Source: a virus
Taxonomy: Duplodnaviria; Heunggongvirae; Uroviricota; Caudoviricetes
Virus record (IMG/VR): IMGVR_UViG_2875703104_000004
Strand: one strand, 5' to 3'
Length of the DNA: 64,000 nt
A program made the translations under genes and the position numbers. This document shows, in pieces, positions 39,412-42,925 of the stretch (position 1 is its first letter; each line of letters begins with the position of its first letter). The notes under the pieces are model-generated. The model saw only the letters and a program-made list of their open reading frames with translations. It made no database searches and was not told the origin of the DNA.

Positions 39412-41349
39412 GTGACTCTTAAACGGGCCTGTTCCCTGCTGACGGTGAAATCCTTCAGTGAGGATGAACGGGTGATCACCGGGATTGCGTCAACGCCTTC
39501 TCCGGATCGGGATGGTGACATCCTGGAGCCGGAGGGGGCGGAGTTTGGCAGTACGATCCCGTTTCTCTGGCAGCATGACCATTCCCGCCCTGTAGGCCAG
39601 TGTACGGTGCGTCGGATCAGGGAAGGGCTGGAAATCACGGCAACACTGGTGAAGCCCGTACCGGATATGCCGTCGCAACTGGCTGCCCGGCTGGATGAGG
39701 CATGGGCTGCCATTAAGACCGGGCTGGTCAGGGGGCTTTCTGTGGGCTTCCGGCCCCATGAATACACTTATCTGGACGGAGGCGGACTGCATTTTCTGCG
39801 CTGGGAGCTGATGGAGGTGTCTGCCGTCACCGTGCCCGCGAATGCGGAATGCACCATCCAGACCATTAAATCTTTCGACCGCCCGTTTTCTGCCGCGTCC
39901 GGCAACCGGAAACCGGTGGTGAAAATCGCATCTTCTGCCGGCGCTTCGGCACAGTCAATAACCTCTTTTCATAAGGAAAAGTCAGCAATGAATACTGGTG
40001 AACAGATTAAAAGTTTTGAAAACAAGCGTGCGGCGCTGGCAGCCTCCCTTGAGGAGGTCATGACCAAAGCCGCAGAGGAAGGCCGCACACTGGATGTGGA
40101 AGAGGAAGAGCACTACGACAACACCGCAGCGGAAATCCGTCAGGTGGATGCGCACCTGAAGCGTCTGCGTGAACTGGAAACCAGTAAGGCCGCCACGGCA
40201 CAGCCGGTGAAACAGGCCGGTAACGGGAATGTGGCCACGGTGGCTTCAGCGCCGGTGATCCGTGTTGAGCAGAAACTGGAGAAGGGGATTGGTTTCGCCC
40301 GCTTTGCCAAATCACTGGCCGCGGCTAAAGGTGTCCGCTCTGAAGCCCTGGAAGTGGCCCGTCGTCAGTATCCGGATGACAGCCGTCTGCATCATGTCCT
40401 GAAGTCGGCGGTGGGGGCAGGGACCACCACGGACCCACAGTGGGCAGGCAGCCTGTCTGAATATCAGGAATATGCGCAGGACTTTATTGATTATCTGCGT
40501 CCGCAGACCATTATCGGGCGATTTGGTCATGGCGGGATCCCGGCACTTCGTCAGGTGCCGTTCAATATTCGCGTGCATGCCCAGGTGTCCGGTGGTGCTG
40601 CCGGCTGGGTGGGGCAGGGTAAGGCCAGACCCCTGACGAAGTTTGATTTTGAATCCATCACCTTCAGTCATGCGAAGGTGGCGGCTATTGCGGTACTGAC
40701 GGAAGAGCTGATCCGTTTTTCCAGTCCTGCCGCCGATGCGCTGGTCCGTAATGCACTGGCGGAAGCGGTGGTGGCGCGTCTGGACACAGACTTTGTGGAC
40801 CCGAAAAAAGCGGCGGTGGCCGATGTTTCCCCTGCGTCCATCACCCATGATGTGAAGGGCACGGCATCAACCGGTAACCCGGATACGGATGCGGAAGCCG
40901 CGTTTGGTCAGTTTGTGGCAGCAAACCTGCAGCCCACCGGTGCGGTCTGGCTGATGTCCAGCACAAATGCCCTGGCGCTGTCCATGCGTAAAAATGCGCT
41001 GGGTCAGAAGGAATATCCGGACATGACCCTGCTTGGCGGCACCTTCCAGGGCCTGCCGGTGATTGTCTCCCAGTACGTGGGTGACCAGCTGGTGCTGGTG
41101 AATGCGCCGGATATTTATCTGGCTGATGACGGCGGTGTGGCGGTGGATATGTCCCGTGAAGCGTCACTGGAGATGCAGTCTGAACCGACCAGCGACAGCA
41201 GCACACCGTCACCGGTGGAGCTGGTCTCCATGTTCCAGACCGGCAGCGTGGCCATCCGTGCGGAGCGCTGGATCAACTGGCGTCGTCGCCGTACCGCGGC
41301 AGTGGCGGTGATCACCGGTGTGAACTACGGAACTGCGTCCGGCGGCTGA
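39412..41349 (+). CDS. fused prohead protease (HK97/S78-like) and major capsid protein
   Basis: GTG start after AGGAGG; N-terminal protease motifs (DRDGDILEP, FLWQHD, GLSVGF), central coiled-coil linker, C-terminal HK97-fold capsid-like region. Confidence 0.75.
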   Translation: MTLKRACSLLTVKSFSEDERVITGIASTPSPDRDGDILEPEGAEFGSTIPFLWQHDHSRPVGQCTVRRIREGLEITATLVKPVPDMPSQLAARLDEAWAAIKTGLVRGLSVGFRPHEYTYLDGGGLHFLRWELMEVSAVTVPANAECTIQTIKSFDRPFSAASGNRKPVVKIASSAGASAQSITSFHKEKSAMNTGEQIKSFENKRAALAASLEEVMTKAAEEGRTLDVEEEEHYDNTAAEIRQVDAHLKRLRELETSKAATAQPVKQAGNGNVATVASAPVIRVEQKLEKGIGFARFAKSLAAAKGVRSEALEVARRQYPDDSRLHHVLKSAVGAGTTTDPQWAGSLSEYQEYAQDFIDYLRPQTIIGRFGHGGIPALRQVPFNIRVHAQVSGGAAGWVGQGKARPLTKFDFESITFSHAKVAAIAVLTEELIRFSSPAADALVRNALAEAVVARLDTDFVDPKKAAVADVSPASITHDVKGTASTGNPDTDAEAAFGQFVAANLQPTGAVWLMSSTNALALSMRKNALGQKEYPDMTLLGGTFQGLPVIVSQYVGDQLVLVNAPDIYLADDGGVAVDMSREASLEMQSEPTSDSSTPSPVELVSMFQTGSVAIRAERWINWRRRRTAAVAVITGVNYGTASGG

Positions 41350-41560
41350 GTCTGATGAGGAGGGCGGGAGGCGCGAGCTTCCCGCAGTAACTGATGGCAA
41401 AAATCCAGTATCTGCAGGGCACGCATGATGCCCGGGCCGGGGATATCCGTGATGTGGCACAGCCGTGTGCGGAGGTGCTGGTTCGCCTGGGGAAGGCGGA
41501 GTACATCACAGTGCGACGTCCGGCAGGTCAGAAAAAGAAACGTGATGCGGAGCATGGCGA

Positions 41561-42925
41561 ATGTGGAACCTTTTGCGGCGAACCCGAAAAAACCAGAAAT
41601 CAGGACGTGATGTAAAAGAGGTGGGCTGGACCAGCCTGTTTCAGGCGGTGGCTGAGCCTTTTGCCGGTGCCTGGCAGCAGGGTGTGAAAGCCGATCCGGA
41701 AACCGTTTTGTCCTTTCACGCGGTGTTTTCTTGCATTTCGCTGATATCCCAGGATATCGCCAAAATGCGGCTGCGCCTGATGCAGACCGATACACAGGGG
41801 ATCCGCCGTGAAAAACGACAGGGGGATATTGCCCGTCTCTGTCGTCGTCCCAATGCACAGCAGAATCGTATCCAGTTTTTTGAACTGTGGCTGAACGCCA
41901 AACTGCGTCACGGCAATACGGTGGTGTTGAAAATCCGTAACTCCCGGGGGCAGATCAAAGAACTGCGTATTCTGGACTGGAGCCGGGTTGAACCTCTGGT
42001 GGCGGATGACGGCGAGGTGTTCTATCGCATTACACCGGACCGGAACTGCGGGATCACTGAGGCGGTGACGGTGCCTGCCAGGGAAGTGATCCACGACCGG
42101 TTTAACTGTTTTTTTCATCCGCTTGTGGGGCTGCCGCCGGTGTATGCTGCCGGGCTGGCGGCCACGCAGGGGCATCATATTCAGGAAAATTCGACGTCTT
42201 TTTTCAGAAATGGCGGCAGGCCGTCCGGGGTGATTGAGATCCCCGGCAGTATTACGGAAGAAAATGCGAAAAAACTGAAGAGCAACTGGGACAGCGGGTA
42301 TACAGGCGAAAATGCGGGGAAAACGGCCATTCTGAGCAACGGGGCAAAATACAACCCCACGACGTTTTCACCGGTGGATGCGCAGACGGTGGAACAACTG
42401 AAGATGACCGCTGAAATTGTCTGTTCGGTGTTCCGTGTCCCGGCCTACAAGATTGGCGTGGCACAACCGCCTTCCAGTGACAACGTGGAGGCGCTGGAGC
42501 AGCAGTATTATTCCCAGTGCCTGCAGACGCTGATTGAGTCCATTGAACTGTTACTGGATGAGGCGCTGGAAACGGGGGAAAACGAGAGTACAGAATTTGA
42601 TGTCACCACGCTGCTGAGAATGGACAGTGAGCGGCGCATGAAAACGCTGGGGGATGCGGTGAAAAATACGCTTCTCACGCCCAATGAGGCCCGTAAACGG
42701 GAGAACCTGCCGCCTCTGGCCGGCGGTGATGCACTGTATCTTCAGCAGCAGAACTACAGTCTGGAGGCGCTGTCCCGTCGTGATGCCCGTGAGGATCCGT
42801 TCGCGTCGACCGGGAAAACAGTTTCATCACAGCTGCCTGACGGCGCATCTGACGGTAATAAGGCCATAAGCGAAACAGAGCGTGATGCGGTGAAGGCGAT
42901 GTTCAGGGGGATACTGCGAAAATGA
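41561..42925 (+). CDS. portal protein (HK97 family); 5' end uncertain
   Basis: RPSGVIEIPGSITEENAKKLKSNWDSGYTGENAGKTAILSNGAKYNP and FRVPAYKIGV fit the HK97-type portal; upstream ORFs 41394..41615 and 41425..41610 may be its true start shifted at an A-run. Confidence 0.7.
   Translation: MWNLLRRTRKNQKSGRDVKEVGWTSLFQAVAEPFAGAWQQGVKADPETVLSFHAVFSCISLISQDIAKMRLRLMQTDTQGIRREKRQGDIARLCRRPNAQQNRIQFFELWLNAKLRHGNTVVLKIRNSRGQIKELRILDWSRVEPLVADDGEVFYRITPDRNCGITEAVTVPAREVIHDRFNCFFHPLVGLPPVYAAGLAATQGHHIQENSTSFFRNGGRPSGVIEIPGSITEENAKKLKSNWDSGYTGENAGKTAILSNGAKYNPTTFSPVDAQTVEQLKMTAEIVCSVFRVPAYKIGVAQPPSSDNVEALEQQYYSQCLQTLIESIELLLDEALETGENESTEFDVTTLLRMDSERRMKTLGDAVKNTLLTPNEARKRENLPPLAGGDALYLQQQNYSLEALSRRDAREDPFASTGKTVSSQLPDGASDGNKAISETERDAVKAMFRGILRK

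Follow-up and report, generated by a model that had tools for sequence, protein, structure and literature searches.

Does one open reading frame (ORF) mean one protein? The question is raised by a gene of the virus record IMGVR_UViG_2875703104_000004 (Caudoviricetes), of which a stretch of 64,000 nucleotides, called the window throughout, was analysed. On the plus strand of this stretch, at positions 39412-41349, a prohead protease and a major capsid protein of the HK97 type are encoded as one ORF, which lies between the gene for the terminase large subunit (TerL) and the portal gene. Our analysis suggests that this ORF probably yields more than one product, given the conserved internal ribosome-binding site and ATG at Met193. 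The explanation that we regard as rather probable as a whole is that of a head block belonging to a phage lineage, in which nested products are made, the protease is delivered on a tether and the shell is left uncrosslinked.

The frame begins with GTG, ends with TGA and encodes 645 amino acids plus the stop codon. The first-pass annotation of a single 646-codon ORF combining an HK97-type protease, a coiled-coil segment and a capsid domain is borne out by Pfam, NCBIfam and PHROG profiles and by an AlphaFold2 (AF2) model, and the gene was identified as a fused prohead protease, delta/scaffold segment and major capsid protein from RefSeq (WP_000173054.1), profile matches, AF2 and Foldseek. The ORF listing and its translation revealed a continuous reading frame without internal stops across 39328-41349. 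The GTG at 39412 is the start according to both the PHROG profiles and RefSeq, in which an identical prophage is annotated, and an AGGAGG Shine-Dalgarno motif for the full-length product, read from the sequence, occupies 39401-39406 (+), 5 nt before this codon. A longer reading of 673 amino acids from the ATG at 39328 was rejected; it overlaps the end of TerL, and its extension is not aligned by any profile.

Domain searches placed both a protease and a capsid domain above the Pfam cutoffs. The S78 protease domain (HK97 gp4 type; 39460-39840, residues 17-143) matched PF04586 Peptidase_S78 at 34.8 bits (cutoff 21) and the PHROG_80 'head maturation protease' family with an E-value of 1e-41, and fell below the cutoff of the stricter equivalog for prohead proteases, TIGR01543 (46.3 against 59). 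His65 and Ser114 are the catalytic residues of HK97 gp4, numbers that were checked by counting in the alignment. When the family profile was aligned with gp4 by hhalign (probability 97.3%, E-value 2.7e-11), these residues were paired with His55 and Ser110, the predicted catalytic residues of the window protein, and neither residue varies among 124 cluster representatives or 80 homologues from viral contigs. The capsid part matched PF05065 Phage_capsid at 54.5 bits (cutoff 24.2) and TIGR01554 major_cap_HK97 at 77.8 bits (cutoff 27.5), the latter covering residues 204-584. PHROG_617 'major head protein', a profile of 626 positions, was matched over the full length with an E-value of 2.2e-259 (profile positions 3-626 with residues 25-667 of the 673-amino-acid reading). 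NCBIfam NF045541, which represents prohead protease/major capsid fusions, gave 49.6 bits against a cutoff of 525 and matched in the protease region only, and a sequence search of the PDB with the whole protein returned weak capsid matches (E-value 0.0055) and no protease match.

An AF2 model built from an alignment of 22 relatives (36-77% identity) had a mean predicted local distance difference test score (pLDDT) of 73.9 and showed how these parts are arranged. A beta-rich protease domain is predicted at residues 17-143, followed by a disordered stretch (39841-39987, residues 144-192, pLDDT about 31), a delta/scaffold-like helical segment of two long helices at residues 195-222 and 229-261 (39994-40194, residues 195-261, pLDDT 82-90), a second disordered segment (40198-40266, residues 263-285, pLDDT below 50) and an HK97-fold capsid shell domain (40279-41337, residues about 290-642), to which Foldseek, PF05065 and hhalign all point. 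The pLDDT lies between 78 and 94 over most of residues 350-640, with brief dips near 400 and 590-600. Foldseek matched the shell domain to the capsid proteins of Bxb1 (E-value 1.7e-13), D3, T5 and HK97; the match between HK97 prohead II and the predicted shell had a template-modelling (TM) score of 0.76 normalised to the target. The helical segment had been read on first pass as a coiled-coil linker. Its coiled-coil nature stands, but it is more than a linker: the TIGR01554 alignment begins at residue 204 and the unfused relatives at residue 193, which makes the helices the N-terminal delta/scaffold segment that HK97-type capsid proteins carry. The actual linker is the disordered stretch 144-192, which is the least conserved and most gap-rich part of the family alignment. 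HK97 gp5 is cleaved on maturation at residues 103/104, and by analogy the disordered segment 263-285 likely holds the maturation cleavage of the window protein.

Analysis of the junction between linker and delta segment revealed a predicted internal ribosome-binding site at 39972-39990 (+), composed of TAAGGA (39972-39977), a 10-nt spacer and the ATG of Met193 (39988-39990). In the AF2 model Met193 marks the transition from the disordered linker to the first delta helix. The N-termini of unfused capsid proteins, M-[KN]-x-[IY]-x-E-[QR]-I, align with Met193-Asn-Thr-Gly-Glu-Gln-Ile, and the ATG at 39988 is, as judged by sequence comparison, the ancestral start of the capsid gene. Burkholderia phage vB_FUB47a (PV072775), a homologous system of 39% identity, has separate genes for the protease (212 amino acids) and the capsid protein (444 amino acids), and the stop codon that separates them lies within the same TAAGGA. 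Its junction reads CAA-TAA-GGA...ATG against CAT-AAG-GAA...ATG in E. coli; the TAA of the motif is in frame in the Burkholderia phage, where it is the protease stop, and out of frame in E. coli.

Conservation of this internal start was measured in 39 non-redundant fused genes (below 90% mutual identity) from viral contigs, reaching down to 45% identity. ATG is kept at the position of Met193 in 37 of the 39 genes, the other two having valine. Shine-Dalgarno matches, scored at positions -20 to -4, were at least 5 nt long in 74% of the 39 genes, compared with 5.9% of 509 other in-frame ATGs and 6.8% of all codons; matches of at least 6 nt were found at 36% of the Met193 sites against 1%. The motif varies by clade, with AAGGA in enterobacterial relatives and AGGAGG elsewhere. 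Furthermore, mRNA folding is weaker in the 50 nt around the ATG than over most of the gene (median z +1.57; median rank among the weakest 6%).

An internal in-frame start with its own ribosome-binding site, placed at the boundary of the shared C-terminal part, is the arrangement that characterises nested gene pairs, and it is present in this gene. Nested in-frame protease/scaffold pairs include lambda C/Nu3, Mu I/Z and herpesvirus UL26/UL26.5. These share the logic proposed here, namely a protease chain and an abundant chain from an internal start, with a common C-terminal part through which they co-assemble; in those pairs, however, the shared part is a free scaffold, whereas in the window the predicted products would share a capsid protein with its delta segment. 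The ORF may be read as a nested pair whose protease-capsid chain would be the minor product and whose capsid chain would be the major one. On this proposal two in-frame chains would be made, one of 645 amino acids from the GTG at 39412 and a delta-capsid chain of 453 amino acids from the ATG of Met193. Having the same delta segment and shell domain, both would co-assemble into capsomers around the portal, and each full-length subunit would carry an S78 protease inside the procapsid, held by a flexible tether of about 50 residues. This would replace the non-covalent docking of the separate gp4 protease of HK97. The protease (His55/Ser110) would then remove itself, the linker and the delta segment, with the cut probably in the disordered residues 263-285, leaving a shell protein of about 360 amino acids, and the shell would expand upon DNA packaging.

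The same gene may instead encode an obligate polyprotein, in which only the 645-amino-acid chain is made, each capsid subunit brings and later removes its own protease, and the internal Shine-Dalgarno motif and ATG are vestigial or used otherwise. We regard this alternative, the reading that such fusions are usually given, as possible, though we doubt it. In 142 of 151 sequences (the query and 150 cluster representatives) the ORF runs through uninterrupted, and by a rough, uncomputed estimate a procapsid of T=7 size would have room for about 415 tethered domains of about 21 kDa. A vestigial ribosome-binding site, however, should decay over divergence to 45% identity, and instead it is about 12-fold enriched relative to other in-frame ATGs, and it lies where the protein is least conserved and the mRNA folds weakly. 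Several points weigh against the nested pair and some of them favour the polyprotein. The start of the full-length chain is not weak: it has a strong AGGAGG, and its equivalent is ATG in 38 of the 39 relatives, GTG being found only in the E. coli clade. Both starts have good Shine-Dalgarno motifs, so sequence alone does not show the full-length chain to be the minor one. The internal motif and ATG could also persist through frequent switching between fused and unfused states or through another role of the motif, and the counts from 39 genes come from related sequences and do not represent independent events. The two products, the cleavage site and the protease activity are all predictions here. 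Moreover, PMC12315714 describes the protease and coat genes of prophage Gifsy-2, the only such fusion known to us from experimental work, simply as fused.

Literature searches on internal initiation in protease-capsid fusions returned nothing relevant. Fused genes themselves are a recognised category. The capsid gene of Gifsy-2 is reportedly tripartite. Like the window gene, it holds a protease, a middle segment and a capsid domain in one ORF of about 700 amino acids, in a lambdoid enterobacterial prophage. It differs in having a ClpP-family protease (PF00574) in place of S78 and a Phage_capsid_4 domain (PF25209) in place of PF05065, and the Gifsy-2 portal gene precedes the fusion, as in the canonical order, whereas the portal gene of the window follows it. 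The window gene is therefore not of the Gifsy-2 type, that is, a ClpP protease joined to a capsid domain 3' of the portal, and the two fusions are analogous, not orthologous. The fused protease-capsid gene of Gifsy-2 is credited to Effantin et al. (2010, Virology 402:355) in PMC8538268 and PMC12315714. 'Major capsid and protease fusion' genes have likewise been described in Arthrobacter phage clusters AM, AU, AN and AW (PMC5513430, PMC12760985); these and the NF045541 family have the same architecture as the window gene, with sequences that are unrelated or only distantly related to it. As a side observation, the unrelated ClpP-capsid gene of Gifsy-2 (locus L086, 22471-24561) likewise carries an AGGAG motif together with an ATG (Met221) directly behind its protease domain. 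This is a single case, and nested initiation might be general for protease-capsid fusions.

Comparison of the shell domain with HK97 gp5 raised a second question, whether the shell is crosslinked as chainmail. HK97 crosslinks K169 to N356. At the positions of K169, N356 and E363 the window allele has Arg406 (40627-40629), Gly611 (41242-41244) and Glu618, in a tentative mapping by hhalign of the family profile against gp5 that is weak (probability 1.5%, E-value 0.034). The set of lysine, asparagine and catalytic glutamic acid that chainmail needs is thus incomplete in the window allele, and the shell is probably not chainmail-crosslinked, because Gly611 and Arg406 replace the aligned asparagine and lysine. 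All three residues occur together in 107 of 124 representatives, the exceptions often lacking two or all three, and they are present in 107 of 109 enterobacterial homologues from outside E. coli; relatives from Salmonella, Klebsiella, Enterobacter and others that keep them are 73-78% identical. In the E. coli clade all copies have glycine at the asparagine position, namely the window, 19 IMG/VR loci and the column-spanning database matches of 88-97% identity, and about half of the copies also have arginine in place of lysine. These replacements suggest that the branch of E. coli and of Shiga toxin (Stx) phages probably lost chainmail crosslinking. What weighs against this conclusion is that the mapping onto gp5 is a weak alignment, backed only by the co-conservation of lysine, asparagine and glutamic acid and by predicted secondary-structure position. 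No replacement cement protein was identified among the genes of the head module.

Taken together, the proposal has two halves: that S78 protease-capsid 'fusions' are nested pairs, in which an internal start yields the bulk capsid protein and a read-through minority delivers the protease, and that the E. coli/Stx branch abandoned chainmail. We give the two halves jointly an even chance. Neither the nested-pair reading nor the loss of chainmail was found described in the searchable literature.

How common the fused state is was determined with an exhaustive HMMER search of 1.84 billion cluster representatives, which identified 12,418 proteins at an E-value of at most 1e-3 and 1,166 at an E-value of at most 1e-30. 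Among the query and its best 150 representatives, 142 proteins are fused, six are capsid-only and three are partial. Down to 38% identity, most cluster representatives are fused. The nearest neighbours of the capsid-only sequences are fused proteins, so splits or fusions happened several times. The proteins already carry names, 'phage major capsid protein' at NCBI and 'HK97 family phage major capsid protein/HK97 family phage prohead protease' at the Joint Genome Institute (JGI). Two distant representatives, P0123 (1094 amino acids) and P0131 (1091 amino acids), have an AAA ATPase domain fused ahead of the protease-capsid chain. An ATPase-protease-capsid gene, an unusual fusion, was also found in a forest-soil contig (L084, 3047-6331), in the same context of TerL upstream and portal downstream.

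These frequencies bear on the suspicion that the fused gene is a decay product of a defective prophage, rendered non-functional when a frameshift removed the protease stop. In favour of decay, the stop codon of the Burkholderia relative sits in the same TAAGGA motif, so that a change of 1 nt interconverts the two states; many E. coli prophages are defective, and the Prokaryotic Genome Annotation Pipeline (PGAP) calls the adjoining portal gene of the EcPF40 prophage 'frameshifted'. We consider decay very improbable nevertheless. The fused state predominates among cluster representatives down to 38% identity, the catalytic histidine and serine are invariant in fused genes, the fusion ORF has no internal stops, and isolated or induced phages, such as vB_EcoS_phi330 and Stx1a/Stx2c-converting phages, carry the block.

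The second feature of the locus is its gene order. Profile matches confirmed TerL (37686-39347) before and the portal gene (41561-42925) after the fusion, as noted on first pass. The suggestion made there that the order is unusual and could reflect rearrangement or mis-assembly is contradicted by its occurrence in 1232 complete E. coli genomes, 91 phage records and 80 IMG/VR relatives. Comparison with related prophages likewise upheld the order of the genes and not the view that it is atypical or rearranged, as the same order is kept throughout the lineage. The block at 37000-44400 (7.4 kb) is carried by 1255 of 5426 complete E. coli genomes, 1232 of which have it unbroken, and a genome having any copy has a median of three. 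The best matches listed for the block are of 100% identity, and 87 records reach at least 99%. At least 80% of the block is covered by 91 phage records at 94-95% identity, mostly of Stx1a-, Stx2c- and Stx2a-converting phages; the inspected record (Stx2a_1447, AP012536) is classified in the genus Sawaravirus, and the isolated phage vB_EcoS_phi330, whose record begins at the head block, is among the carriers.

A degenerate-pattern scan of IMG/VR yielded 80 loci with homologues of 45-99% identity. In all 80, wherever the contigs reach, TerL lies directly 5' and the portal gene 3' of the fusion, and the full series of HNH, terminase small subunit (TerS), TerL, fusion, small ORF, portal, a homologue of the 353-amino-acid protein (p353) that follows the portal gene, Ad1 and Hc1 is usual among them. 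The forest-soil contig has TerL-...-[AAA-protease-capsid]-small ORF-portal. Hence the order TerL-fusion-small ORF-portal departs from the textbook order and yet is the fixed signature of a large lineage, whose standard order is HNH-TerS-TerL-[protease-delta-capsid]-small ORF-portal-p353-adaptor. The module is the intact head-morphogenesis block of an HK97-like lineage of lambdoid prophages. This lineage is widespread and includes long-tailed Stx phages (Sawaravirus), and most of its members read from the protease into the capsid gene without a stop.

An assembly artefact or a local rearrangement that put the portal after the capsid gene has, in our judgement, a negligible probability. Elsewhere the window does have structures absent from complete genomes (at about 33192/33193, 50806-52070 and 58970-59993), which is what could be said for an artefact. 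Against it stand the collinearity of 33860-50805 with the EcPF40 prophage next to ompW at 99.9-100% identity, the presence of the 37000-44400 block in one piece in the complete genomes counted above and the same gene order in distant relatives. At the two junctions beside the fusion (39347-39412 and 41349-41561), collinearity with more than 1200 independent complete genomes takes the place of read support.

Comparison with named phages further showed that the fusion gene, its architecture and its position before the portal are already known, being annotated in RefSeq, at JGI, in PHROGs and in named Stx phage genomes. Stx-converting phages (Stx2a_1447, Stx1a/Stx2c and vB_EcoS_phi330) and the EcPF40 ompW prophage have the same genes in the same order as the window. 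The DNA of the window head module is 94-95% identical to the Stx phage records and 100% identical to EcPF40, and the proteins are 96-98% identical. In these phages the gene is annotated as 'major head protein', 'phage prohead protease' or 'capsid and scaffold'; the EcPF40 copy is WP_000173054.1, 'phage major capsid protein'. A literature search on the head genes of Stx phages yielded only a paper on short-tailed Stx2 phages and one on morphology; for a long-tailed Stx2c phage an elongated head is reported (PMC12029490). They do not differ from the window in any essential respect, the alleles varying in a run of five or six guanines (G5/G6) and in the number of repeats in p353. Burkholderia phage vB_FUB47a has the order TerS-TerL-protease-capsid-small ORF-portal-adaptor as in the window; unlike the window, it has no homologue of p353 after the portal. 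HK97 shares with the window the protease family and its catalytic histidine and serine, the capsid fold and the built-in delta segment (gp4/gp5), as well as the types of flanking gene (HNH, terminase, portal, Ad1, Hc1 and gp10-like). It differs in having separate protease and capsid genes and the order TerL-portal-protease-capsid.

The neighbouring genes, all on the plus strand, were assigned as follows. An HNH endonuclease gene at 36469-36834 (PHROG_589, E-value 1.8e-44; RefSeq 'HNH endonuclease') lies 5' of TerS in most related loci, and by analogy with HK97-like cos phages its product may serve as a packaging accessory. A putative cos site is probably located in the gap 36834-37126, between HNH and TerS. 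TerS occupies 37126-37689 (Pfam Terminase_2; PHROG_641, E-value 1.9e-68), with its start taken from RefSeq, and TerL has TerL_ATPase and TerL_nuclease domains (PHROG_9, PHROG_7622). A pattern scan found a terminator-like GC hairpin (GAACCGC-TGCG-GCGGTTT) with a T-run at 39372-39399, in the gap between TerL and the fusion and ahead of the AGGAGG; a scan of 36-44.5 kb for promoters and terminators showed no excess over shuffled sequence (eight found, 7.6 expected). Between the capsid part and the portal lies a conserved ORF of 73 amino acids (41394-41615; PHROG_829, of unknown function, E-value 7e-39), which overlaps the start of the portal gene by 55 nt. Both EcPF40 and the Stx2a_1447 record annotate this ORF, which was detected in most enterobacterial relatives, and the same slot holds a small ORF in vB_FUB47a (58 amino acids) and in soil contig L084 (116 amino acids). 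The portal protein is of the HK97 family (PF04860, 275 bits; TIGR01537, 355 bits). Pfam and PHROG matches identified genes for the Ad1 adaptor (43980-44306), Hc1 head closure (44319-44669), a gp10-like head-tail joining protein (44666-45112) and the tail terminator (45109-45453).

The conserved portal-adjacent protein p353 (353 amino acids; 42922-43983, +) follows the portal in most of the 80 related loci and has a helical N-terminus, tandem repeats and a conserved C-terminal domain. The tandem repeat at 43147-43517 comprises 2.3 copies of a unit of 162 nt (54 amino acids) with the motif PxPxDG...DAV, and its number varies, giving alleles of 1059, 1221 and 1383 nt. The C-terminal domain is strongly conserved (GDxVTWGGSLW...KRGRD); a sub-threshold match to CBM_5_12 (CBM5/12) was found there, and Pfam and NCBIfam assigned no family to p353 beyond it. 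The ATG of p353 overlaps the portal stop codon (ATGA), and the G5 run at 42906-42910 (+) lies 11 nt before this ATG and 12 nt before the portal stop. Seven related loci of E. coli type (L009, L010, L012, L015, L016, L017 and L028) have G6 at the portal end. With G6, portal and p353 form one ORF, which in L012 has 893 codons from the first GTG, or about 861 amino acids from the portal ATG. Many NCBI entries named 'phage portal protein, partial' are portal-p353 fusions, and PGAP labels the G5 portal form of EcPF40 a frameshifted pseudogene. The two states could be true alleles, a homopolymer sequencing error or programmed -1 frameshifting. If confirmed, a run that switches the portal from a protein on its own to one extended at the C-terminus could interest those who study capsid assembly.

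The remaining structures of the window were also compared with complete genomes. The left half (1-33860) is not EcPF40 prophage and contains two lambda-like head/tail modules (about 1-16000 and 21400-32800) with a mutual identity of 82-97%. The segment 32788-33192 is 100% identical to 51018-51422 and 52186-52590, and not one of the 5426 complete E. coli genomes reads across the junction near 33192/33193. The left half could be a genuine patchwork of prophage remnants in tandem, or it could stem from faulty assembly. Relative to EcPF40, extra overlapping copies of minor-tail L/K genes, in units of about 584 bp, were found at 50806-52070 (50904-51536 being 100% identical to 52072-52704), together with an extra copy of a segment of about 1 kb at 58970-59993, near the lom/tail-fibre region. 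The tandem duplications of the L/K and lom regions are absent from the closest complete genome. The odd junctions and the tail-gene duplications do not touch the TerL, fusion and portal genes.

About a quarter of complete E. coli genomes carry this head block, and an order of TerL, fusion and portal, as the signature of its lineage, is unfit as a flag of mis-assembly. If chainmail was indeed lost, the capsids of the E. coli/Stx branch would need another source of stability. If the nested pair is real, the conserved internal start suggests how the copy number of the protease is set in protease-capsid fusions.

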